A DNA stretch of 64,000 bases from a virus. Positions 35,616 through 61,461 of this stretch are shown in pieces (position 1 is the first letter of the stretch; each line of letters begins with the position of its first letter). Made by a program: the position numbers and the translations under genes. Location: the IMG/VR virus record IMGVR_UViG_3300035701_000001; one strand, given 5' to 3'. Under the pieces are notes generated by a model that saw only the letters and a program-made list of their open reading frames with translations, was not told where the DNA came from and did no database searches.

Positions 35616-36185
35616 ATGATGATACGACTTACTGAGTGGGCGACTCGACAAGGGATCGCGTATATCACGGCCTTTCGTTGGTCACAGGCTGGTAAAATCC
35701 CAGGACTGCACAAGTCCGTATCTGGACGGCTTTTTGTCGAGGTCGAGGAGTCAACCGGTAGGGAAACTGTGCTTTACGGTCGTGTTTCGTCTTCCGATCA
35801 AAAAGCAGATCTCGACCGACAGATGGACCGACTTCGAAGTTTTGCCGCAGCGCGCGGAATGATCGTGAATCGCGAGGTGCAAGAGATCGGTTCCGGGTTG
35901 AACGGACATCGAAAAAAACTCATTGGTCTTCTTCGCGATCCCAAAGTTAGTGTGATCGTCGTTGAGCATAGAGACCGATTGGCACGCTTCGGAGTCGAAT
36001 ACATTGAGGCTGCCATAGCTGCACAAGAACGGAACATTCTTGTCGTAAATGAAGGAGAACAGAAACTCGATCTCGTTCAGGATTTCATCGATGTGGTGAC
36101 TTCAATGTGTAGCCGTATTTACGGTCGACGTGCTGCATTGAACAGAGCAAAGGCTGCACTGGCTGCAACCAAGGTTATTCCATGA
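35616..36185 (+). CDS. tnpA: IS607 serine recombinase transposase TnpA
   Basis: LTEWATRQGIAYITAFRW (HTH), YGRVSSSDQKADLDRQ, VEHRDRLARFG, SMCSRIYGRR. Confidence 0.95.
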   Translation: MMIRLTEWATRQGIAYITAFRWSQAGKIPGLHKSVSGRLFVEVEESTGRETVLYGRVSSSDQKADLDRQMDRLRSFAAARGMIVNREVQEIGSGLNGHRKKLIGLLRDPKVSVIVVEHRDRLARFGVEYIEAAIAAQERNILVVNEGEQKLDLVQDFIDVVTSMCSRIYGRRAALNRAKAALAATKVIP

Positions 36186-37507
36186 TTCTCGCCCGTAGTT
36201 CCACTCTTCGTCCATCTTCCGAACAGGCCCGTGCCTTCGGTCGGGCGTGTGGAACGGCCAGGTGGGCGTGGAACTGGGGTCTCGCCAAGAAGCAGGAAGC
36301 GTGGAAGATCCGAAAAGCCGCCATCGAATCCGGAATCAAACCGTCTGACGCTCCGAAGGTGCCAACGGCCATTGACCTACATCGGGATCTGGTAAGATTC
36401 AAAAAGCTTCCCGTCGAGGAAGGTGGCGTCCCATGGATGTACGAAGTCTCGAAATGTGCTCCGCAAGAGGCTCTTAGAGACCTTGACGTAGCATTCGAGA
36501 ACTTCTTCAGACGGTTGAAGTGTGGAGAAACGCCAGGATACCCAAGATTCAAATCGCGTTTTCGTGATCCTGGACACTTTCGGCTTACGGGTGCTATCTC
36601 AGTCAAAAATGGACGGATTCGTCTCCCTCGGATCGGGGCTGTACGGTTCATGCCTGGAGATCGGAGCTACTTTTCTGACGGTGCCTTCGGTAGTGTCAGT
36701 ATCGTAGAAGACCATGGTCGCTGGTGTGTCTCCGTGAGGACGAACATTTTCGAGGCTCCTGTGGACAACACGCGGCCTACTGTTGGAATCGATGTGGGTG
36801 TTCGAGAACTCGCTCATCTCTCCGATGGAACCGTGATTCCGAATCCGCAGGCGCTGGACAGTGAGAACAGGCGACTCCGCAGGGCCAGGCTGACAATTGC
36901 CAGAAAGCAGCGTGCTGCTGATAAGCGATTTGGAAAGAGGAAGAAAGGAGAACGTCGTATCGAGTCAAAGCGACTGCAACGAGCCAGGAAAATCCATGCC
37001 CGTCTTGCTCGTCGTGTTACAGATCTCCGTGCGGATGCTCTTCACAAGTCAACGACATGGATTGCGAAGACGTACAGCACCGTCGTAGTCGAAGACCTTC
37101 ACGGGAAGAACATGACCCGTACCAGGAAAGGTAAAGGTCGAGCCTCGAAGGCCGGTCTGAATCGGTCGATTCTCGACAGCGGAATGCTACGTATTCGGCC
37201 TATTTTGGCTTACAAGATGCCGTTGTACGGTGGCTGGTTGGTTGCGGTTCCGGCAGCGGGGACGTCGCGTCGATGTTCTCGTTGTGGAGCGTACAACGAT
37301 CCAGGTTCCTCGAAAATTTACAAGTGCGAATCCTGCAAACTCGTCATTGATCGAGACGAGAATGCTTCGCTCAATATTCATGCCGCTGCGAGTTGCACAG
37401 TGGCCTCGACAGAAATGTCGGGATGTCGTGGAGCGGTTGTAAGACCCAAGGCGAAAGCCGGACGGCAGGCTGCTTTGATCCGACAGTTGGAGCCTGATCA
37501 TGTTTGA
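36182..37507 (+). CDS. tnpB: TnpB RNA-guided endonuclease with catalytic residues intact
   Basis: GTARWAWN, VGIDVG (RuvC-I D), VVEDL (RuvC-II E), TSRRCSRCG..CESC Zn finger, DRDENAS (RuvC-III D). Confidence 0.95.
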   Translation: MILARSSTLRPSSEQARAFGRACGTARWAWNWGLAKKQEAWKIRKAAIESGIKPSDAPKVPTAIDLHRDLVRFKKLPVEEGGVPWMYEVSKCAPQEALRDLDVAFENFFRRLKCGETPGYPRFKSRFRDPGHFRLTGAISVKNGRIRLPRIGAVRFMPGDRSYFSDGAFGSVSIVEDHGRWCVSVRTNIFEAPVDNTRPTVGIDVGVRELAHLSDGTVIPNPQALDSENRRLRRARLTIARKQRAADKRFGKRKKGERRIESKRLQRARKIHARLARRVTDLRADALHKSTTWIAKTYSTVVVEDLHGKNMTRTRKGKGRASKAGLNRSILDSGMLRIRPILAYKMPLYGGWLVAVPAAGTSRRCSRCGAYNDPGSSKIYKCESCKLVIDRDENASLNIHAAASCTVASTEMSGCRGAVVRPKAKAGRQAALIRQLEPDHV

Positions 37508-52746: not shown

Positions 52747-53721
52747 ATGCACCCTGTGATCTGGATCGGCAGCCTCGTCCTCGGGGCCTGGGCTCTCTCG
52801 GGAACCTCGAAGAGAAAGGAACCTCCTGTCGCAGGTTCTCCCGAACCTTCTCGCTCCGTAGGGTTCCTGGGTCGTCCTCGCTATGGAGCTACGGAAATCC
52901 GGCAGGTTTCCCCAGATGAACTTGGGCTTCTTGTTGAAGTACCCTGGGGAATAGTAGCGAAAGCACGGCAACAAACGCTGAAAGATGGCTGGACTCACAC
53001 GTTTTTTCCTGACGCACGTGGAAAATTTCCCATCTGGGCAATCGGCCAGCACTACTACTACTTGCCTCCAGGCGACCCGTGGACAGATCAGTGGGCAATG
53101 TCCTCGACGTACGCCGATCCGTTCGATCCTCCGACAAGGAAGAGGATTTTCACCGTTCCTTCCAAAGATCCTCAGTACTTCGACCTGGTCGATAGAATGA
53201 CTGAAATCAATCTGGACGAAGCCTATGCAGGGCGGAAGTCACGTTCGGACCGTTTCGGGGCAGTGACGGAGGAGGACCGCCTGGCTGTAGCCATCCGGGA
53301 ATTCAGGCGCGCAGCCGAGGAGTTCAAACCGCACTATGACAGGGGGGACTCCGTCCTGAATGCGAAGACCTCGGACAGCAAGGGTAGGCCCCTTGTTGGC
53401 GTTCTCACCCCTGTGGGGGACTGGGAATACGGGAAACCCATCAACTACGGCGTGGACTATCTCCATGGAGAGGCCTGTCGCATCGCGGAGAAGTACCGGG
53501 TGAGGGCAGCGATGTCTCCGGTGGTGTCCGTTGGGGAGAACCAAGGGGTCGTCATCGGACTCACGTCGGCTTGGAACCCAGCATTCCAGACTCTCTTCCG
53601 TGGACAGAATCCAGAGCTTCAATGGGGGAGAGCCAGTCTGAAGGGACTCCAGTACCAGACAGGCATCTTGCCACGTCCTGGTTCGGGGGACTCGTACGGG
53701 AAGAAGGCCTCCGAGATCTAA
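52747..53721 (+). CDS. membrane-anchored paralog family member 4
   Basis: VIWIGSLVLGAWALS anchor; VPWGIV...FPDARGKFP; IAEKYRVRA...QGVVIGLT; GGAGG RBS. Confidence 0.8.
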   Translation: MHPVIWIGSLVLGAWALSGTSKRKEPPVAGSPEPSRSVGFLGRPRYGATEIRQVSPDELGLLVEVPWGIVAKARQQTLKDGWTHTFFPDARGKFPIWAIGQHYYYLPPGDPWTDQWAMSSTYADPFDPPTRKRIFTVPSKDPQYFDLVDRMTEINLDEAYAGRKSRSDRFGAVTEEDRLAVAIREFRRAAEEFKPHYDRGDSVLNAKTSDSKGRPLVGVLTPVGDWEYGKPINYGVDYLHGEACRIAEKYRVRAAMSPVVSVGENQGVVIGLTSAWNPAFQTLFRGQNPELQWGRASLKGLQYQTGILPRPGSGDSYGKKASEI

Positions 53722-53785
53722 CGCAATCGAATAGCGCACCAGATTGGGGATCTGGTGAGTGATCGTTCCAATCAGGTGGTCCCGA
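53712..53785 (+). pseudogene. degenerate tRNA-Pro(GGG)
   Basis: CCAGA-TTGGGGA-TCTGG is intact; acceptor 6/7 paired; T-stem broken; overlaps the stop of the upstream ORF. Confidence 0.6.
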
Positions 53786-53794
53786 CTTGTTCAT

Positions 53795-53871
53795 GGGGTT
53801 GTAGCTCAGTTCGGGAGAGCGCGGCGTCCGCAACGCCGAGGCCGGGGGTTCGACTCCCCTCGACTCCACCA
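53795..53871 (+). tRNA. tRNA-Ala(CGC), C33
   Basis: G3-U70; CGGCG-TCCGCAA-CGCCG; CCA. Confidence 0.9.
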
Positions 53872-53876
53872 TTCAT

Positions 53877-53949
53877 GGGCCTGTAGTTCATCTGGGAGAA
53901 CACCTCGGTGGCATCGAGGAGGCAGTCGGTTCGAGTCCGATCAGGTCCA
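53877..53949 (+). tRNA. tRNA-Ala(GGC)
   Basis: G3-U70; CCTCG-GTGGCAT-CGAGG. Confidence 0.9.
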
Positions 53950-53958
53950 CTATTTCAC

Positions 53959-54035
53959 GGGGTTGTAGCTCAATGGTTTAGAGCAATCGGCCGTTAACCG
54001 ATAGGCTGTCCGTTCGAGTCGGACCTTCCCCGCCA
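53959..54035 (+). tRNA. tRNA-Asn(GTT), C33
   Basis: ATCGG-CCGTTAA-CCGAT; G73, CCA; two acceptor mismatches. Confidence 0.85.
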
Positions 54036-54040
54036 TCTTT

Positions 54041-54128
54041 GGGACGGTAGCTCAGTTGGGTAGAGCGCGGTTCTGATAAGACCGAGGCCGAGAGGATTTC
54101 GTGGGTTCGAGCCCCGCCCGTCCCACCA
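54041..54128 (+). tRNA. tRNA-Ile(GAT) with expanded (16-nt) variable region
   Basis: CGGTT-CTGATAA-GACCG; variable region AGGCCGAGAGGATTTC; CCA. Confidence 0.85.
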
Positions 54129-54129
54129 T

Positions 54130-54206
54130 TGTCCCCTAGTTCAATTGGCAGAACGCTCGGCTCTGGACCGAGAGGTTTCAAGGTTCGAACCCTTGGGGGA
54201 CAACCA
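54130..54206 (+). tRNA. tRNA-Gln(CTG)
   Basis: U1-A72; CTCGG-CTCTGGA-CCGAG; CCA. Confidence 0.92.
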
Positions 54207-54212
54207 TCTCGT

Positions 54213-54285
54213 GTCGGTGTAGCCCAAAGGCTGGGCACGACGCTGCAAACGTCGAAGAATGCCGGTTCGAATCCGGCCGCCGACT
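54213..54285 (+). tRNA. tRNA-Cys(GCA)
   Basis: CGACG-CTGCAAA-CGTCG; U73. Confidence 0.92.
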
Positions 54286-54292
54286 CCCTCTT

Positions 54293-54368
54293 CGGGGTGT
54301 AGCTCAGTTGGAGGAGCGCCTGGTTCGGGACCAGGAGGTTTTCGCCGGTTCGAGCCCGGCCACCCCGA
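54293..54368 (+). tRNA. tRNA-Pro(CGG)
   Basis: CCTGG-TTCGGGA-CCAGG; 8-nt variable loop. Confidence 0.9.
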
Positions 54369-54454
54369 CTCCTTCGTGTTACAACAAGGATACCGGCAGG
54401 CCGTGAGCCGGGACAACCGCACGGTACCTTCACCTCGATGTCAGGGAGAACGAC

Positions 54455-54883
54455 ATGAGACAGGTGCGTGCGAAGTTCCGGTGCATGGAGATCAGCCGTT
54501 TCTGGAACGGGGGGTGTACGCTCGTACGTTTTTTGCCTGTCATGGCAAAGAATGGATGCCGTGCGGACGAAGAGACCGCCAGCGAGGAGAACGCAGCCTT
54601 CTGGCAGGCAACCCCTTCCGGAGAAGCCAAGCTCCAGTTCCCCACGCTCGACCCCGTGTCCTACGAGATCGGGCACTGCTACTACCTCGACATGCGTCCA
54701 GACGAACAGGGGAGTTGGAAGCTCACCGAGCGCAAGCACAGTGAAGGCCAACTCGGGGTTGTCCTGTCCTGCTCCTGGCGGGACTCGGTCAGCATGAACA
54801 TCTGCAACGAGTCAGCCTGGGATGCCTTCGACGGTCCCATCGGGGGACCCTGGTCTGTCGAGTTCACGCACGCGGGGCCGTAG
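54455..54883 (+). CDS. conserved-looking phage hypothetical protein within the tRNA array
   Basis: VRAKFRC...PV...SEENAAFWQATPSG; GGGAG RBS. Confidence 0.8.
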   Translation: MRQVRAKFRCMEISRFWNGGCTLVRFLPVMAKNGCRADEETASEENAAFWQATPSGEAKLQFPTLDPVSYEIGHCYYLDMRPDEQGSWKLTERKHSEGQLGVVLSCSWRDSVSMNICNESAWDAFDGPIGGPWSVEFTHAGP

Positions 54884-54898
54884 CGCTCCTTCTTTTGC

Positions 54899-54969
54899 CG
54901 GGGCGTTGGCAAGCGGCAAGCCACCAGGCTTTGGTCCTGGCATCGCAGGTTCGAATCCTGTCGCCCCCA
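54899..54969 (+). tRNA. tRNA-Gln(TTG)
   Basis: CCAGG-CTTTGGT-CCTGG; C1/C72 mismatch. Confidence 0.85.
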
Positions 54970-54977
54970 CCTTCGAA

Positions 54978-55054
54978 GGCAGCGTACCTCAGTTGGCCAG
55001 AGGAGGGCGCTCATATCGCCACGGTCGCCGGTTCGAGTCCGGCCGCTGCCACCA
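54978..55054 (+). tRNA. tRNA-Met(CAT), elongator type (Ile2 not excluded)
   Basis: GGCG-CTCATAT-CGCC; G1-C72; CCA. Confidence 0.85.
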
Positions 55055-55063
55055 TCCTTTCAT

Positions 55064-55141
55064 CCGGCTGTAGCTCAGCCTGCTCAGAGCGCGTGGTCGG
55101 GGACCACGAGGTCGCCCGTTGAAGTCGGGCCAGCCGGACCA
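55064..55141 (+). tRNA. tRNA-Pro(GGG), C33
   Basis: CGTGG-TCGGGGA-CCACG; CCA. Confidence 0.88.
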
Positions 55142-55145
55142 TTTT

Positions 55146-55220
55146 GCGGGTATGGCGCAATGGTAGCGCATCGGGTTGCCAATCCGAAGGTTGCCGGTTC
55201 GACTCCGGTTGCCCGCTCCA
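55146..55220 (+). tRNA. tRNA-Gly(GCC)
   Basis: TCGGG-TTGCCAA-TCCGA; U73, CCA. Confidence 0.93.
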
Positions 55221-55339
55221 CTTTGAAATAATCTACAAAAAACGAAAGAAACGAAAATAATGACACAGAACTTGTATAGTCCGAGGCTTGGACTATACAG
55301 TTCCTGTGCAATTTCAAGAAAGATGCAGGTTCCTTCGTT

Positions 55340-55412
55340 GCTGACATAGCTCAGCCGGTAGAGCAGTGGTTTTGTAAACCTCAGGTCGTCGGTTCGAACC
55401 CGACTGTCAGCT
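55340..55412 (+). tRNA. tRNA-Thr(TGT)
   Basis: GGT-TTTGTAA-ACC. Confidence 0.9.
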
Positions 55413-55422
55413 TTCCTTCCTC

Positions 55423-55500
55423 GCCCCAGTAGCTCAGGTGGATCAGAGCGCGTCCTTGGTAAGGACGAGGTCATCGGTTCAAGTCCGATTTGGGGCTCCA
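55423..55500 (+). tRNA. tRNA-Thr(GGT)
   Basis: CGTCC-TTGGTAA-GGACG; CCA. Confidence 0.93.
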
Positions 55501-55506
55501 TTTTGT

Positions 55507-55584
55507 GCCTCAGTAGCTCAGATTGCTTGGAGCGCCTGCTTCGTACGCAGGAGGTCGTCGGTTGGAATCCGACCTGAGGCTCCA
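55507..55584 (+). tRNA. tRNA-Thr(CGT)
   Basis: CCTGC-TTCGTAC-GCAGG; CCA. Confidence 0.92.
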
Positions 55585-55727
55585 TTTCTCAGGACGCATC
55601 GAACGAGGCTAGGGCCCGTGTCTCCCTTCGGAATCGGTGGGAGGAGCTTCGGCTTCGTTTGCACCACCCCAACGCGGTGGATAATCGGGGTGGGAAGCGT
55701 GCGGATGACCTGTCCTGGGATCTATTT

Positions 55728-55799
55728 GCGGGAGTAGCTCAATGGTAGAGCGCCAGCCTTCCAAGCTGGCCGTTGCGGGTTCGAGTCCCGTTTCCCGCT
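55728..55799 (+). tRNA. tRNA-Gly(TCC)
   Basis: CCAGC-CTTCCAA-GCTGG; U73. Confidence 0.93.
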
Positions 55800-55807
55800 C
55801 TTTTTCC

Positions 55808-55882
55808 GGGTGTGTAGCTCAATGGTGGAGCACCGTTTCGACATGGCGGAGGCCGTTGGTTCGAGTCCAATCACACCCACCA
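55808..55882 (+). tRNA. tRNA-Val(GAC), C33
   Basis: CCGTT-TCGACAT-GGCGG; A73, CCA. Confidence 0.88.
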
Positions 55883-55888
55883 TTTCTT

Positions 55889-55927
55889 GGGGACGTAGCT
55901 CAGTTGGGAGAGCGGCGTTGCACGCGT
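55889..55927 (+). pseudogene. 5' remnant of a tRNA-Ala(TGC)-like gene
   Basis: GGGGACG-TA-GCTC-AGTTGGGA-GAGC, then TTGCAC in a shortened arm; no T-arm or acceptor 3' strand follows. Confidence 0.65.
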
Positions 55928-55952
55928 AGTCCAGGTATGGTAGCACTAGGCT

Positions 55953-56444
55953 ATGTCGAAGTACCGCTTTGTGAAAGCTCCTCCTGACTACCCCGGCAAG
56001 GTGTACTCCTGGGGGTATCGGGTTCTTGAACATCACCTTGTTTGGTGGCAGAACACCAAGCGCCTCGTTGCAGAAGGTTTTGAGCTTCACCACAAGAACG
56101 AAAATGGGTTGGACAATCGCTTTGAGAACTTGGAGGAAATCAGGGCGCCGGATCATGGCAAGCTGCATCACCCAAAGGAACCGGATGTGGAGACAACCTG
56201 CGCTTACTGCGAAAAGCCTCTCACTAGAAGTGGCCGGGATGTCAAGTCCAAGAGAAAAGCTGGTCAGCAGCGATTCTTCTGCTCATCTTCTCATGCAGCC
56301 CTCATACGACAACGTGAGAAGAAAGGATCGAAGGCCGGTCACGGTACAAGCTCGATGTATAACATTCATGGCTGTCGATGTGAAGTCTGCAAAGTCTACA
56401 ATCAAGCCAAGTATCTCAGGTACAAGGCTAAAAAGGGGCGTTAG
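55953..56444 (+). CDS. HNH (HNH_3-type) homing-like endonuclease with Zn-ribbon domains
   Basis: VLEHHLVW...ELHHKNENGLDNRFENLE...H..LHH; CAYC..FCS; HGT..Y..HGCRCEVC; stop lies inside the next tRNA. Confidence 0.88.
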   Translation: MSKYRFVKAPPDYPGKVYSWGYRVLEHHLVWWQNTKRLVAEGFELHHKNENGLDNRFENLEEIRAPDHGKLHHPKEPDVETTCAYCEKPLTRSGRDVKSKRKAGQQRFFCSSSHAALIRQREKKGSKAGHGTSSMYNIHGCRCEVCKVYNQAKYLRYKAKKGR

Positions 56445-56510
56445 TTCAGTTGCGAGAACACTCGGCTTGCACCCGAGAGGTCGCGGGTTGGAACCCCGCA
56501 CGCTCCACCA
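56435..56510 (+). tRNA. tRNA-Ala(TGC)
   Basis: G3-U70; CTCGG-CTTGCAC-CCGAG; CCA. Confidence 0.9.
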
Positions 56511-56516
56511 TTTCTG

Positions 56517-56590
56517 TGCGGGGAGAGGTGTTGGTTTCCCAACCAGGACTCATACTCCAGGCCACGTCGGTTCGATTCCGGCCCCCGCTA
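56517..56590 (+). tRNA. tRNA-Met(CAT), initiator-like
   Basis: 1-72 mismatch, acceptor (T)GCGGGG/CCCCGC(T); GGA-CTCATAC-TCC (lacks the full 3GC pairs). Confidence 0.75.
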
Positions 56591-56599
56591 CCCTTGTTC

Positions 56600-56672
56600 G
56601 CGAGCATCGTCTAGCGGCCAGGACTCCGCCTTTACACGGCGGCTATCGGGGGTTCGAGTCCCTCTGCTCGCA
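56600..56672 (+). tRNA. tRNA-Val(TAC) with a Glu-like body
   Basis: CCGCC-TTTACAC-GGCGG; D-arm TCGTCTAGCGGCCAGGAC; A73. Confidence 0.88.
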
Positions 56673-56682
56673 CTTCTCCCAT

Positions 56683-56755
56683 GCCCCCGTCGTCTAACGG
56701 TCAGGACTCCGGGTTTTCAGCCCGGCTACTGCAGGTTCGAATCCTGTCGGGGGTA
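56683..56755 (+). tRNA. tRNA-Glu(TTC)
   Basis: CCGGG-TTTTCAG-CCCGG. Confidence 0.92.
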
Positions 56756-56761
56756 CTCCTT

Positions 56762-56836
56762 GCTCGCGTAGCTCAATGGAGGAGCACCGGAGTTCTACCT
56801 CGGTCGATGGAGGTTCGAATCCTCTCGCGAGCGCCA
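56762..56836 (+). tRNA. tRNA-Arg(TCT)
   Basis: CCGGA-GTTCTAC-CTCGG (31-39 mismatch); CCA. Confidence 0.8.
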
Positions 56837-56841
56837 ATCAC

Positions 56842-56916
56842 GGCCCCGTAGCTCAGTGGAATCAGAGCCTCCCGTTCCTACCGGGAAGGTCACCGGTTCG
56901 AGTCCGGTCGGGGCTG
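56842..56916 (+). tRNA. tRNA-Arg(CCT)
   Basis: TCCCG-TTCCTAC-CGGGA. Confidence 0.92.
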
Positions 56917-56976
56917 CTTTTCCTCGTCGTGCAAGACCGTCGTATCCAGGGTATTCCTCTGCTGCAGGAAACTGTC

Positions 56977-57558
56977 ATGCACGCCGTCCTTCTTCTCAAC
57001 GTCGACCATACCCCCATGAAGATCGTCCCCTGGCAGAAGGCCATGTGTCTTCTGCTCGCGGACAAGGTCCGGCTCATCGAGAGCTACGGGGACAAGGTCG
57101 TGCATTCCGCCTCGGGCAAGACCTGGCCCTGGCCTGCGGTCGTGGCCCTGAAGACCTATGAGCGGATCAAGAGGGCCGAGTCGAAGGTCAAGTTCAAGCG
57201 CCTCAACGTGCTGGCCCGAGACGGGTTTGCCTGCGCGTACTGCGGGGTCAAGCCCCAGACGTCCGCCGGGCTTCCTGACCTGTCTCGCCTCTCGGTCGAC
57301 CACGTCGTTCCGAAGTCCCGTGCGGTCGATGGCAAGGTGAAGCTGCCCTGGAACGGCCGGGTGGTCCCCATGACGTGCTGGGACAACGTCGTGTCCTCCT
57401 GCAACGCCTGCAACTACGCGAAGGCGGACCGGACCCCTGCCGAGGCGGGGATGAAGCTCCAGGTCGTCCCGAGACGACCCAATCCCTTCGACGTCGTCCG
57501 CATCGTGCTGTCTCGGATGGCCGTGCCTGCCGAGTGGGAACCACATTTGTCTTCTTGA
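56977..57558 (+). CDS. HNH endonuclease (McrA-like, LLLN...W.KA N-terminus)
   Basis: VLLLNVDHTP..IVPWQKAMCLL; NVLARDGFACAYCG; SVDHVVPKSR; WDNVVSSC..CNY.KADRTP.EAGM.L. Confidence 0.92.
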   Translation: MHAVLLLNVDHTPMKIVPWQKAMCLLLADKVRLIESYGDKVVHSASGKTWPWPAVVALKTYERIKRAESKVKFKRLNVLARDGFACAYCGVKPQTSAGLPDLSRLSVDHVVPKSRAVDGKVKLPWNGRVVPMTCWDNVVSSCNACNYAKADRTPAEAGMKLQVVPRRPNPFDVVRIVLSRMAVPAEWEPHLSS

Positions 57559-57621: not shown

Positions 57622-58953
57622 ATGAAAAAGTCCAAGGTCTCCAAGACCCCCAAGATCATCATTTCCCATCCGGGTTTCCTCACGCGGGCCGTGCGGTTCG
57701 CGGTGAGCTTCCCTGGGATGCGGAAGGCCGATCTCAATGGGGAGAAGGGGCTGTTCTACCAGCTTACCGTCACACAGAGCGATGTGCGTCGAGCCGCCAA
57801 CCGCCTGATTCACCTCATCGCCTTGCTCGACCGTGGGATGATCGAACGGCCGATGAGGGAAGATGGAACAGGCCCCGAGTACGCCCAGACCCTTGGCTAT
57901 CGGGCCCTCAACGGAACCTGGCAGCCCTTCGACAAGCCTCTTTACGATCCGGAAGCCAAGCGGCTCGGCGGTGGATGCCTCTCTGCGCTGTCCGAGTTTG
58001 TCCGCAACCGGTATGCCAACGACAAGAAGGCAGTCCGGAAGGATCGGAATCGTCCGGAGTACAGCACGTTCAAGATCCTCCCCATCCCCATCCGGGCCCA
58101 GGAGACCCACATCCAAGAGGACGAGAAGGAGGGAATCACGATTTCCCTTGGCCTGTGGAGCAGGGATGCGGGGGGAGCCACTCGCCTGAAGGTCAAGCCG
58201 GTCAAACCCAACGCAGGGCAGAAGACCATCCTCCAGCGTCTCCTCGATGGAACCTACTCGTGTGGCGGTGCACAACTCACCCATCATCCCCGCAAGGCGA
58301 AGTGGATGCTGTCCGTCGTCTATACAGGCCTGGTCCAGCAAACACGGGGGGATTGGATTGCCGGGGTACGGCTCGATGCCTCTCCCTACGTCGAGATCGC
58401 CTACACCCCGAAGACTCCTGTTCCCGAAAATACTCCGAACCACGAAGCTCCTCGTCCGGATACGCTGCGTGTCTCGGAAGTCGCCCTGAGGGCGTGGTGC
58501 CAGGTGGAGGAACAGAAGAGGGAACGGCTGCACTTCAACCGGGACGTCTACGGGGCTCGGGAAGGACAAGGCCGGAACGGAAAGCTCAAGCCTGTCTCCG
58601 CAATCCAGGACAAGCATGCGAGGACGGTGAAGACAGCCCTGCAGCAGACCGCGTGTGCCGTCGTGGAGACGGCGAAGAAACGGGGTGCTTCGGTGCTCGC
58701 CCTTGGAGATGTGCAGGGTCTCGCCAGGAAATTCCTCCGCCAGACGGACGAGATGAGCCGCCGCAAGCGTGCCCACCTCCGCCGGATCCGGTTCTTGCAC
58801 CAGCAGCCGTCCGAACTGTACGGCTACATCCAGATGGCCGCAGAGCGGGAAGGCTTGGCCTTCCTCAAGGTCGGTCCTGCCGACTCCGCCCTCCATGCGG
58901 CCTTGCAAGGACGGGAAGCCATTCTGCAAGGAGAAATCCCATCCGTTTCTTGA
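57622..58953 (+). CDS. nuclease-dead Cas12f1-like (type V-F) CRISPR effector, 443 aa
   Basis: Aligns by eye to AsCas12f1 blocks (KTILQRLLDGTYSCGGAQLTHHPRKAKWMLSVVY; GAREGQGRNGKLKPVSAIQDK). RuvC-I GVRLD (D to R), RuvC-II ALGDV (E to G); Zn finger and RuvC-III absent. Array adjacent. Confidence 0.85.
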   Translation: MKKSKVSKTPKIIISHPGFLTRAVRFAVSFPGMRKADLNGEKGLFYQLTVTQSDVRRAANRLIHLIALLDRGMIERPMREDGTGPEYAQTLGYRALNGTWQPFDKPLYDPEAKRLGGGCLSALSEFVRNRYANDKKAVRKDRNRPEYSTFKILPIPIRAQETHIQEDEKEGITISLGLWSRDAGGATRLKVKPVKPNAGQKTILQRLLDGTYSCGGAQLTHHPRKAKWMLSVVYTGLVQQTRGDWIAGVRLDASPYVEIAYTPKTPVPENTPNHEAPRPDTLRVSEVALRAWCQVEEQKRERLHFNRDVYGAREGQGRNGKLKPVSAIQDKHARTVKTALQQTACAVVETAKKRGASVLALGDVQGLARKFLRQTDEMSRRKRAHLRRIRFLHQQPSELYGYIQMAAEREGLAFLKVGPADSALHAALQGREAILQGEIPSVS

Positions 58954-58984
58954 CTTTGAACGCTCTTTGACATTTCTGAGCATC

Positions 58985-59170
58985 CCCCTGTTGGTTCCCG
59001 CAGCGGCAGGGGTGTGGTGTTGGGCTGACTACGCAGCCAGAAGGGGAGTCCCTTTCTAGGGAAGCCACCCGAGCCCATGGGAAGCTCGGGGCGCGAAGTG
59101 GTCTACAGGGTTGCAAGCCTCGGTTCCCGGTGTCGAAACCGGTCCCCCCGAGGCCCCCCGCAAGGGGCAG
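58985..59170 (+). ncRNA. putative tracrRNA (anti-repeat at 59103-59127; ends approximate)
   Basis: CTACAG plus CAAGCCTCGGTTCC pair with repeat nt 31-36 and 12-25 (20 bp, two G-U); flanking GC-rich hairpins. Confidence 0.75.
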
Positions 59171-59397
59171 GACCCGCTTGATCAACGCTCCTCAATCCTC
59201 TCCTTTTGCGAGTGGTCCGGCTTCGGCTGGATTCCCAGATGCCGCTCGCACGCTCGAAAGTGCAAATAAGGAAGGAACCTACTATTGAAAGATAGAAGAG
59301 TGGATCTCTGCGGGAACCTCTGTGGCTGCGTGGAAAAGGTGGATAACTCGCCATCCGAGTCGGAGAAGGGCTTGGTTTGCGGATCGTGAACGGGTCT

Positions 59398-61461
59398 GTT
59401 GCAGTGGAGGAACTGAGGTTTGATCTGCTGTAGCGCTCCTGGACACATCGACTTGCTGGCCGAGTTTCCAGGTTGCAGTGGAGGAACTGAGGTTTGATCT
59501 GCTGTAGCGCTCCTGGACACATCGACTTGCTGGCCGAGTTTCCAGGTTGCAGTGGAGGAACTGAGGTTTGATCTGCTGTAGCAAAAGACCGAACGTCCGG
59601 TCGAGACCAGCAATCCAAGTTGCAGTGGAAGGACTGAGGTTTGATCTGCTGTAGCATGATACAGCGCACGACCTATGCGCCCTTCGCGTCGTTGCAGTGG
59701 AAGGACTGAGGTTTGATCTGCTGTAGCATGCCCTGTCTGTCGGGAACGGATCCGTTGTACAGGCGTTGCAGTGGAAGGACTGAGGTTTGATCTGCTGTAG
59801 CCTACCAGCGGTCCGCCGGGATCACGGCGTCGGATCTGGTTGCAGTGGAGGAACTGAGGTTTGATCTGCTGTAGCCGCCCAAGTTCCGCTATCTCTCTCA
59901 GCACGTTCCGGGTTGCAGTGGAGGAACTGAGGTTGGATCTGCTGTAGCGCAGAGCTACTCCGTGAGTCCACGTCTCGCCCACTTGTTACAGTAGAGGAAC
60001 TGAGGTTTGATCTGCTGTAGCCGGCTCGTCGCCCTCCGCGACCACCTTCTGCACCATGGGTTGCAGTGGAGGAACTGAGGTTTGATCTGCTATAGCCAGG
60101 CCCGCAGTGTCTCCGGGCGGTGGCTAGAAGGCGGTTGCAGTGGAGGAACTGAGATTTGATCTGCTGTAGCAGCACCGGCCACCTGAGAACAGGTCACACT
60201 TCTCGGAGGTTGCAGTAGAGGAACTGAGGTTTGATCTGTTGTAGTTAGAGCGAGCGCGACAGGATGAGCGCGGACCTTTGAGTCGCAATGGAGGAAATGA
60301 AGTTTGATCTGCTGTGGCCCGCAATCTCGCTCGCTGTCCGAGCAATTTCCGGTGGTTTCAGTGGAGGAACTTAGGTTTGATTTGCTGTAGTTCCACGCGC
60401 GGACGCTACGCTGGGGCTGGCAGGTGAAATCGCAGTGAAGAAACTGAGGTTTGATCTGCTGTAATGACCCGGATACGCCCGCGTCCAATGCCAGTTCTGT
60501 GGTCGCAGTGGAAAAACTGAGGTTTGATCTGCTGTAATGACTTCCGGACGACCTTCTCTTCTGCAGATGATCAGTTGCAATGGAGGAACTTGGGTTTTAT
60601 CCGCTGTAGCAGGTACTCCGCTGCTTCATAGGTTTGATTCGCTGTAGCTTGGCGAGCGGAGGCTTCTTGTCAGGAAGATGAAGGAATCGCAATGGAGAAA
60701 CTTAGGTTTGTTCTACTGTAGTCTCGACCGTCTACCTTATGAGAGACCCTGTCATCGGTTGTAGTAGATGAATTGAGGTTTGATCCTCTGTAGCACTCGA
60801 ACTGACCATGGAAAAGTTGAGGTTTGATCTGCTGTAGCGAGGGTCCTCGATCCAAATCCAAAGGTCCTACCTTGTCACAATGGAAAAATTGAGGTTTGAT
60901 CCTCTGTAGCGGTGGAGCGACGTTGAGAGTTGGTTCCGCGAGCGCTTCGCAATAGAGAAATTGAGGTTTGATCCGTTGTAGCCGCAAGCCCGGTGACCAT
61001 CTGCCTGGTAAAATCGTGATTGCAGTAGAAAAGTTGAGGTTTGTTCCGCTGTAGTGCGGCTGCGGTCAACGGCAGGGGTTCCGTGGACATCGTTGCAGTG
61101 GAAAAGTCGAGGTTCGTTCCATTGTAGCAAGAGAAGCTCGAAGAATGGAAGGAGCATCCCGGTGGTTGCAGTGGAAAAGTCGAGGTTTGATCTGCTGTAG
61201 CAAGCCGTTCACCGGGGAACAGTCCTGGTATGGGGTCGGATATCTGAACCTCGTGATGTCCCATCGAATTGCAGGGGAAGAATTGAGGTTGGATCCACTG
61301 TAACATTGCCTGCCACGTTTCACAGGTAGAGGTCGATTGTCGTTGAGATGGAGGAAGGAAAGTCAGATCTGCTGTAGTGCGGCCCCCGTGCTGCCCCATG
61401 AAGTTCCTTGTGCCTGCCAAAGAGGTCAAGGGGGAAAAACATAGGTTGGATCCGCTGTAAT
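59398..61461 (+). CRISPR. CRISPR array: 29 repeats (2 truncated), 28 spacers; consensus GTTGCAGTGGAGGAACTGAGGTTTGATCTGCTGTAGC (37 nt)
   Basis: Regular spacers of mostly 35-38 nt; degeneration increases rightwards, so the leader is on the left; terminal 7-bp pairing needs G-U pairs, favouring + strand transcription. Confidence 0.97.

Follow-up and report, generated by a model that had tools for sequence, protein, structure and literature searches.

The viral record IMGVR_UViG_3300035701_000001 from IMG/VR, a stretch of 64,000 nucleotides (nt) that we refer to in its whole length as the window, carries a CRISPR array on the + strand at 59398-61461, beside the gene for a nuclease-dead relative of the Cas12f effectors (P0001). 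The explanation that we favor, as a whole at about even confidence, is that this is the guide array of a phage-borne dead Cas12f relative, old at its far end and young at the end near the effector. The array would be transcribed on the + strand, downstream of a scaffold RNA of about 250 nt that resembles a trans-activating CRISPR RNA (tracrRNA). New units would be joined at the effector-proximal end and units would rarely be purged, which together would make the array old at one end and young at the other. Because no cas1 or cas2 gene lies nearby, we presume that host adaptation enzymes or recombination supply these units. The differences among the old repeats would be a mixture of repeat alleles, inherited or exchanged between units, and of unit-specific mutations, with most of the variation in the repeat's 5' half, which in Cas12f systems lies outside the 40-50-nt mature CRISPR RNA (crRNA). 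Since two blocks in the 3' half stay nearly constant through unit 27, most old units probably still yield crRNAs that can be loaded, and the effector would act by binding without cutting.

The array consists of 29 units of a 37-nt repeat with the consensus GTTGCAGTGGAGGAACTGAGGTTTGATCTGCTGTAGC. The repeats of units 1-3 and 7 match this consensus exactly, those of units 4-6 carry A12 and G14 (an AGGA/AAGG variant), and that of unit 8 has a single change, T24G. No two of the 21 repeats in units 9-29 are alike; over the 37 aligned positions they show 1 to 14 differences from the consensus, and the count climbs overall from 1-3 in units 9-12 to 10-13 in units 28-29. The 27 full-length repeats can all be aligned gap-free, with no small insertions or deletions despite 133 substitutions, and 24 of the 28 spacers are 35-38 nt long. 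The parts of the array are the following:

59398-59948, + strand: units 1-8, with near-identical repeats and seven different spacers.
59985-61461, + strand: units 9-29, with progressively divergent repeats.
60628-60648, + strand: truncated unit 18, with repeat positions 17-37 left; a 17-nt spacer remnant (60611-60627) precedes it.
60808-60838, + strand: truncated unit 21, with repeat positions 7-37 left; a 13-nt spacer remnant (60795-60807) precedes it.
61202-61267, + strand: a 66-nt spacer.
61379-61424, + strand: a 46-nt spacer.

A first-pass annotation, made from the letters of this DNA, had described repeats 1-8 as near-identical, about 20 later repeats as nearly all different, two units as truncated and two spacers as long, and each of these descriptions is borne out. 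Both large deletions left the 3' 21-31 nt of the repeat intact, and no repeat remnant was detectable inside the 66-nt and 46-nt spacers. The repeat variants are real and not assembly noise, because an independent assembly from the Joint Genome Institute (JGI), L002, reproduces every one of them; it is 100% identical over 6.5 kb save for one copy of the duplicated unit 1. The window and L002 represent the same strain, and their agreement carries no information on turnover. Degeneration at the leader-distal end is expected of an array, yet here it spans 21 of the 29 repeats, beyond ordinary trailer-end decay. Searches for other arrays with this repeat gave none in the GTDB species genomes or the JGI metagenome collection (three single chance matches in each) and none in IMG/VR.

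The direction of growth is suggested by the effector-proximal end. Spacers 1 and 2 are the same, and units 1-8 thus carry seven different spacers amid identical or near-identical repeats, which points to faithful, relatively recent additions at this end. The earlier proposal that the spacers form a fixed guide set is contradicted by the same observation.

The distribution of the changes along the repeat is uneven. The 133 differences, biased from GC to AT, comprise 106 transitions (75 at G/C positions versus 31 at A/T positions) and 27 transversions, and the raw counts per position are strongly overdispersed (dispersion 2.83, p<5e-5), with six invariant positions (2, 11, 22, 27, 32 and 34). 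Because units share variants, some of them in nested sets, such counts overstate independence: 116 of the differences are shared with at least one other unit, a nested set (T16 > A12A13 > G15 > C17) runs through units 20-27, and a neighbor-joining (NJ) tree of the repeats contains clades of units. Both the nested set and the clades point to inherited alleles. We accordingly give Fitch parsimony steps on the NJ tree and on a tree built by the unweighted pair group method with arithmetic mean (UPGMA), which number 88-94 (dispersion p 0.06 and 0.014). Of these, 52-57 fall in the 5' half and 30-32 in the 3' half (p 0.02 and 0.011), and the 13 positions 19-25 and 31-36 account for only 18-19 (p 0.002-0.0035). 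Within the 3' half, the blocks AGGTTTG (19-25) and CTGTA (31-35) are nearly unchanged through unit 27 and break down in units 28-29.

These results qualify several statements of the first-pass annotation. Decay had been called non-random, which fits the raw counts but becomes marginal when shared variants are collapsed and disappears for unit-specific changes, which are evenly spread. The 5' third, said to vary freely, is indeed variable, but the variable zone is the entire 5' half (positions 1-18), including seven positions of the long helix predicted below. In the ATCTG segment, likewise described as free, only positions 29-30 vary much, and T27 is invariant. The persistence of GAGGTT and (C/T)TGTA stands for AGGTT, exact in 25 of 29 units, and for (C/T)TGTA, present in 27 of 29, but not for G18, which varies in 6 units.

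Several results weigh against the explanation that we favor. Collapsing runs of adjacent shared variants reduces the dispersion to a marginal 1.37 (p 0.054), and the 13-position block set was chosen after seeing the data, so that its p values are post hoc. Unit-specific substitutions alone show no depletion in the constant blocks (p 0.13-0.74), and 8 of the 17 variants seen once in the array fall within the 13 block positions; the unit-specific filter is conservative, as it also drops recurrent hits at tolerated sites. The spacer-adjacent positions 36 and 37 vary a lot, which is a poor fit to a simple 3' handle, and the last nine repeat nucleotides taken together are no more constant than average in the window. 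The variant of units 4-6, lying inside consensus repeats, is unexplained by simple leader-end growth. Finally, no spacer target was found across the window (blastn-short gave just chance 9-13-mers), across phage and plasmid records (whole array, E<=1) or in IMG/VR (20-mers of the six spacers 1, 3, 5, 7, 22 and 24). Taken together, there is moderate evidence for slower change in the 3' half and its two blocks, weaker than the raw picture conveys. The blocks may be kept by selection for crRNA maturation or loading. Support for this comes from the two large deletions, which spare the 3' part of the repeat, and from related loci described below, namely a dead relative with 3'-only units (L001) and two loci with 9-nt cores (L010, L003).

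The A12/G14 trio of units 4-6 (59619-59801) is bordered by consensus repeats on both sides. This pattern goes beyond simple copying of the leader-end repeat and suggests that array variants recombined, or that gene conversion or ectopic integration took place.

The first-pass annotation had attributed the constant segments to pairing with a tracrRNA whose anti-repeat faces the repeat around an internal loop. Such a segment was located on the + strand by its collinear complementarity to the repeat:

59103-59127, + strand: predicted anti-repeat.

Within it, CTACAG (59103-59108) is complementary to repeat positions 31-36 (the short helix) and 59114-59127 to positions 12-25 (the long helix), with a 5x5 internal loop between them. 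The predicted duplex has an energy of -35.9 kcal/mol against a background of -29.6 +/- 2.9, about 2 standard deviations better, and only 7 of 264 background chunks form a 14-bp helix with the repeat. Complementarity and position make a tracr model for 59103-59127 plausible, and the layout agrees with published Cas12f1 loci (PMC8548392). Folded alone, the RNA pairs part of the anti-repeat (59117-59123) internally, with 59150-59156. A cross-locus matrix of handle/anti-handle energies showed no cognate preference, hence no covariation support for the tracr model.

It could then be that purifying selection acts on the old repeats at the tracrRNA-pairing cores and that the old spacers are a fixed, long-term regulatory guide set, an account that we regard as unlikely. 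Both constant blocks (19-25 and 31-35) fall inside the predicted duplex, and 91.7% of the pair cells are still paired (48 broken of 575). Nevertheless, when whole columns were permuted among positions with the same consensus base, a procedure that preserves both mutation spectrum and relatedness among units, the 20 pairs defined a priori showed no protection (48 broken cells versus 52.2 +/- 8.6 expected, P 0.34). The mean duplex energy was similarly unexceptional (-30.0 versus -28.8 +/- 1.1 kcal/mol expected, P 0.16), as was the comparison of paired with unpaired positions by tree-parsimony steps (p 0.24). Differences per position average 3.3 at positions 1-11, 4.4 in the long helix (12-25), 3.8 in the loop (26-30), 1.5 in the short helix (31-36) and 8 at position 37, and the most variable positions of the repeat, 12, 13 and 16-18, sit within the long helix. 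The G-C to G-U changes to which the first-pass annotation drew attention do occur and retain pairing (C16>T 8 times, C31>T 3 times) but form a minority: of the 70 substitutions that hit paired positions, 48 are disruptive and 22 leave the pair intact, and the commonest, G12>A (11 units) and G13>A (10 units), are pair-breaking. The claim that the tracr-pairing cores are kept is thus not sustained, and predicted tracr pairing as a whole does not predict conservation. Only for the blocks chosen post hoc does the same permutation give a deficit of broken cells (15 versus 35.8 +/- 8.3 expected, P 0.0035).

The second half of this account, the fixed guide set, finds some support in base composition, since spacer G+C falls only from 62.4% (spacers 1-16) to 57.9% (spacers 17-28; p 0.08) while that of the repeat 5' half drops from 55.6 to 41.1%. 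A dead effector also suits binding-only roles, for which there are precedents in a dCas14 with a host-directed spacer (PMC7162821) and in promoter-targeting guides (PMC13472631). Against it stand the recent additions in units 1-8, the lack of any target in the searches given above, and the first 20 nt of the spacers, whose G+C does not differ from that of the remainder, as it might if selection acted on the guide only. The small loss of spacer G+C can mean either that spacers are protected or that most repeat variants are inherited alleles and not decay; with private changes at only about 5-15% per old unit, neutrality would be expected to produce a shift this small. A search of the array for ancient spacer duplicates by which spacer divergence could be gauged found none except the identical spacers 1 and 2. 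The gap-free repeats and canonical spacer lengths hint at a constraint on unit geometry or at a time scale shorter than the raw divergence implies.

Neutral decay of the distal array is an alternative to which we give somewhat more weight than to the pairing cores, while still holding it to be improbable. Here, the unevenness would come from identity by descent together with a transition-biased, GC-to-AT spectrum acting on a G-rich 5' half. The sharing of 116 of the 133 differences, the nested sets and clades of units, the even spread of private substitutions and the spectrum itself (106 transitions to 27 transversions, 75 of the former at G/C and 31 at A/T positions) are all in line with it, as are the changes that reach the blocks in units 28-29 (6 broken pairs each) and the two old guides already reduced by deletion to 17 and 13 nt. 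Against it, at G positions alone, the mean number of changes is 6.3 in the 5' half and 2.3 in the 3' half, and the blocks remain depleted under the permutation among same-base columns. Neutral decay also sits poorly with 27 repeats free of small indels and with two large deletions that both miss the 3' part of the repeat, and some shared variants may be recurrent hits at the only tolerated sites, which a private-only test discards. Both outcomes for the old units, working guides and decay, fit the data in hand.

The constancy of CTGTA could also reflect pairing between the two ends of the repeat (positions 1-7 with 31-37), instead of or besides the tracrRNA. Such a terminal stem, as found in many CRISPR repeats, may serve pre-crRNA folding or spacer integration. 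Over the 22 distinct units, 89% of its cells are paired, compared with 21-70% in slid controls, and compensatory changes (G1-C37 to A1-U37 three times, U3-A35 to C3-G35 once, G7-C31 to A7-U31 once) accompany one-sided ones that keep the pair (U2-G36 to U2-A36 four times, G4-U34 to A4-U34 three times). The stem would account for the tolerated G36>A and C37>T, though G36>A breaks an anti-repeat pair. Its covariation score of 0.259 exceeds the shuffled 0.225 +/- 0.017 and was reached by 12 of 500 shuffles, a control that does not give a probability for related sequences. On the other side, C3-A35 (6 cells) and A7-C31 (5 cells) do not pair, the stem is absent from the RNAalifold prediction, truncated units 18 and 21 lack its 5' strand, and the constancy of positions 19-25 is left unexplained. 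Support for the self-stem is modest, and we place its likelihood as low as that of the pairing cores.

A further mechanism concerns which units persist. Identical repeats would recombine in a replicating phage genome, with loss or duplication of units, so divergence at dispensable positions might be favored, or might simply survive, by stabilizing old units. The sole difference between the two assemblies is one unit gained or lost between identical repeats, with spacer 1 equal to spacer 2, and the old units, all with differing repeats, have all been retained. This is a single event, possibly an assembly collapse of identical units, and the mechanism does not itself explain which positions stay constant; we think it very unlikely.

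The guide array of a dead effector, old at its far end, also agrees with the features of the effector itself:

57622-58953, + strand: P0001, a 443-amino-acid (aa) Cas12f-like effector, nuclease-dead and C-terminally truncated, identified by phmmer and motif alignment.

A phmmer search matched residues 72-367 of P0001 to the AsCas12f structures 7wju, 8dzj and 8j12 (E about 3e-13), and its size falls within the 400-700 aa of Cas12f/TnpB-type effectors. In an alignment with AsCas12f and 49 relatives, the RuvC-I Asp is replaced by Arg (GVRLD) and the RuvC-II Glu by Gly (LALGDV), and the protein ends ahead of the zinc (Zn) ribbon and RuvC-III, both of which are absent. As the first-pass annotation had supposed, the effector is dead; by these motifs, P0001 is a truly nuclease-dead, C-terminally truncated Cas12f relative. 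Most of its relatives keep the catalytic Asp, Glu and Asp (D/E/D) in the clade alignment. The NCBIfam model guided_TnpB scores 34 bits, under its cut-off of 100 bits, and a Pfam scan gave no match. We collected 36 representative relatives at E<1e-30, and a search for relatives in IMG/VR and phage records found none.

The region between the effector gene and the array contains the following predicted elements:

58967-58972, + strand: a TTGACA box just 3' of the effector stop codon, a candidate start region of the scaffold RNA.
58985-59250, + strand: predicted scaffold (tracr-like) RNA region, with approximate ends, defined by motifs common to related loci.
59251-59397, + strand: an A+T-richer leader from the scaffold RNA to repeat 1, recognized by inspection; a promoter scan of it found no consensus.

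TTGACA or a one-mismatch version occurs at the aligned place in 5 of 6 loci and is exact in the window, L003 and L010. Scans of the locus gave no full sigma-70 promoter match and no useful terminator. A hairpin, GGCTG..CAGCC, is followed by AGAAGGGGAG (59023-59048) and shows compensatory change across L001, L010, L003 and L014; AARGGGGAG is the form of the motif after the hairpin that is common to the window and related loci. Further downstream, GCGAGNGGTCYGG is present as a single copy at 59208-59220 and as a single copy at the matching place in L001, L010, L011 and L014. The TTGACA box and the hairpin with its following motif likewise occur one time each, at corresponding sites, in L001, L010/L011 and L014. 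An Rfam search of the scaffold region gave no match, and its fold was no better than that of shuffled sequences (z-score -0.57). The 3' hairpin region of the scaffold (59202-59239) resembles the start of the repeat (TTGCGAGTGG vs TTGCAGTGG), and the repeat of L001 likewise resembles a scaffold segment there, GCGAGCGGTCCGG. These resemblances raise the possibility that the repeats arose from the scaffold RNA's 3' end.

Related loci show other states of the same arrangement. The closest dead relative, P0003 (34% identity), has an array of its own in locus L001. This array (L001:3158-3680) contains five good 37-nt repeats, followed by degenerate ones and then by two units with only the 3' 19-24 nt, at irregular unit spacings (60, 73, 73, 73, 52 ...). 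P0031, in L010 and L011, is dead and lacks the Zn ribbon; it is followed by eight copies of the 9-nt core GYGCRGTGG (L010:5624-5975, and L011), versus 1.4 expected, at irregular spacing and with one copy on the opposite strand. These copies are possibly a very reduced guide array. Locus L003, from a JGI 3300033144 contig, encodes P0005 (1370-2779), a Cas12f-like protein with an intact D/E/D triad. Downstream of it, L003:3275-4673 holds about 42 same-strand copies of the 9-nt core YCAC(G/A/T)(G/A)CGG with a median spacing of 29 nt, including 24 exact copies of CCACGGCGG versus 0.2 expected; two adjacent spacers are diverged duplicates, and gene callers put open reading frames (ORFs) over the region. 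This looks like a micro-repeat guide array with a 9-nt handle and a spacer of about 20 nt.

Together, L001, L010 and L003 point to the spacer-proximal part of the repeat as what matters in this clade, and to arrays that no integrase holds in shape. A bolder proposal, which we consider doubtful, and more so than the self-stem, is that the arrays of the clade, freed of Cas1-Cas2 constraints, evolve toward minimal handle-plus-guide units and that the old guides are a selected, hard-wired target list. The window would then represent an early stage in which the repeat 5' half and the spacer tails are free to drift or to be deleted, L001 an intermediate with 3'-only units, and L010 and L003 end states, and the array would amount to a natural mutational scan of the crRNA handle.

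The locus belongs with the already published array-associated dCas12f and phage dCas14 systems, and is unusual in how long its array is and in how far its repeat gradient extends. Hoffmann, Wiegand et al. (Nature 2026, PMC13472631) described array-associated dCas12f proteins whose C-terminal truncations take away part of the RuvC site, proposed a repressor role, and reported vestigial or discontinuous arrays and promoter-targeting guides. P0001 is similarly truncated, has lost part of RuvC and lies beside a CRISPR array. Those loci, compared here by description, are bacterial (Bacteroidetes), while the present carrier is a giant phage; the characterized ones work with a sigma-E partner and single chimeric guide RNAs and have no tracrRNA, unlike the 29-unit array, the predicted separate scaffold RNA with an anti-repeat and the lack of a sigma-E or helix-turn-helix (HTH) neighbor here.

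Al-Shayeb et al. (Nature 2020, PMC7162821) reported a huge-phage dCas14 that lacks one catalytic residue and has a spacer to the host glycyl-tRNA synthetase (glyRS) gene, with a proposed role in repression; phage CRISPR loci in that study generally lack adaptation genes. The window shares with it a huge-phage Cas14/Cas12f effector without catalytic residue(s) and the absence of Cas1, Cas2 and Cas4 at the locus. P0001 goes further in lacking the catalytic residues of all three RuvC motifs and the Zn ribbon, and its array has 29 repeats versus a median of six in the phage arrays of PMC7162821, where repeat decay was not analyzed.

Two nuclease-active systems are also close in some respects. In Cas12r-CRISPR of the Thermus Lalka phages (bioRxiv 10.64898/2026.04.20.719267), a small type V effector is followed by a degenerate-repeat array in which one spacer is cut to 6 nt; new spacers enter beside the effector gene, adaptation genes are missing and the system is thought to rely on the host. 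The phage type V effector, the degenerate repeats, the truncated spacer and the effector-proximal growth recall our locus, unlike the active nuclease, the independence from a tracrRNA, the 29-bp repeats and the short arrays. For the type V-F1 Cas12f1 systems (AsCas12f, SpCas12f1), PMC8548392 places the tracrRNA between gene and array and describes a crRNA made of part of the repeat plus the spacer. AsCas12f (PDB 7wju, 8dzj, 8j12) offers the best structural-sequence relatives of P0001, but Cas12f1 proteins are DNA-cutting enzymes with both the D/E/D triad and the Zn ribbon, which P0001 lacks, and the available part of that source does not describe their arrays as degenerate, as the array in the window is.

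If most old units still make working guides, the 29 units can be read as the long-term target list of an RNA-guided DNA binder in a giant phage. The repeats, in 22 distinct natural variants, would reveal which handle positions a 443-aa dCas12f tolerates, information that would help the design of very compact programmable binders. If the old units are merely decaying, the locus is an ordinary relic joined to a short, still-growing array. In either case, the substitution pattern does not back a tidy account in terms of tracr-pairing cores.

Regarding the surroundings, the flanks of the array within the window hold no cas1, cas2 or cas4 gene. Downstream of the array lie an ATP-grasp gene and two ORFs without a family match, and the locus has no sigma-E (rpoE) or HTH gene beside it, its neighbors being HNH and ATP-grasp genes. 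Two further genes of the window, for a DnaE-type polymerase and a thymidylate synthase, have phage-family matches.

Directly upstream of the CRISPR locus, 23 tRNA genes are packed within 3.2 kb (53712-56917). An HNH endonuclease gene (57000-57558, + strand) lies 63 nt upstream of P0001 and shows weak similarity to the HNH domains of Cas9d and IscB. According to ARAGORN, the last two tRNA genes (56762-56917) overlap the longest HNH reading frame, so the start of the HNH gene must be further downstream. A role of this gene as a nuclease partner in trans was considered and rejected, since the gene lacks conservation at the related locus L001 and since the tRNA region has many free-standing HNH genes. 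Given this lack of conservation, we take it for a probable free-standing homing endonuclease that belongs to the tRNA region. Finally, a canonical TnpB is encoded at 36182-37507 (+ strand), with HTH_OrfB_IS605, OrfB_IS605 and TNB domains and a match to the PHROG 506 transposase, so that this genome houses both a standard TnpB and a dead Cas12f relative.

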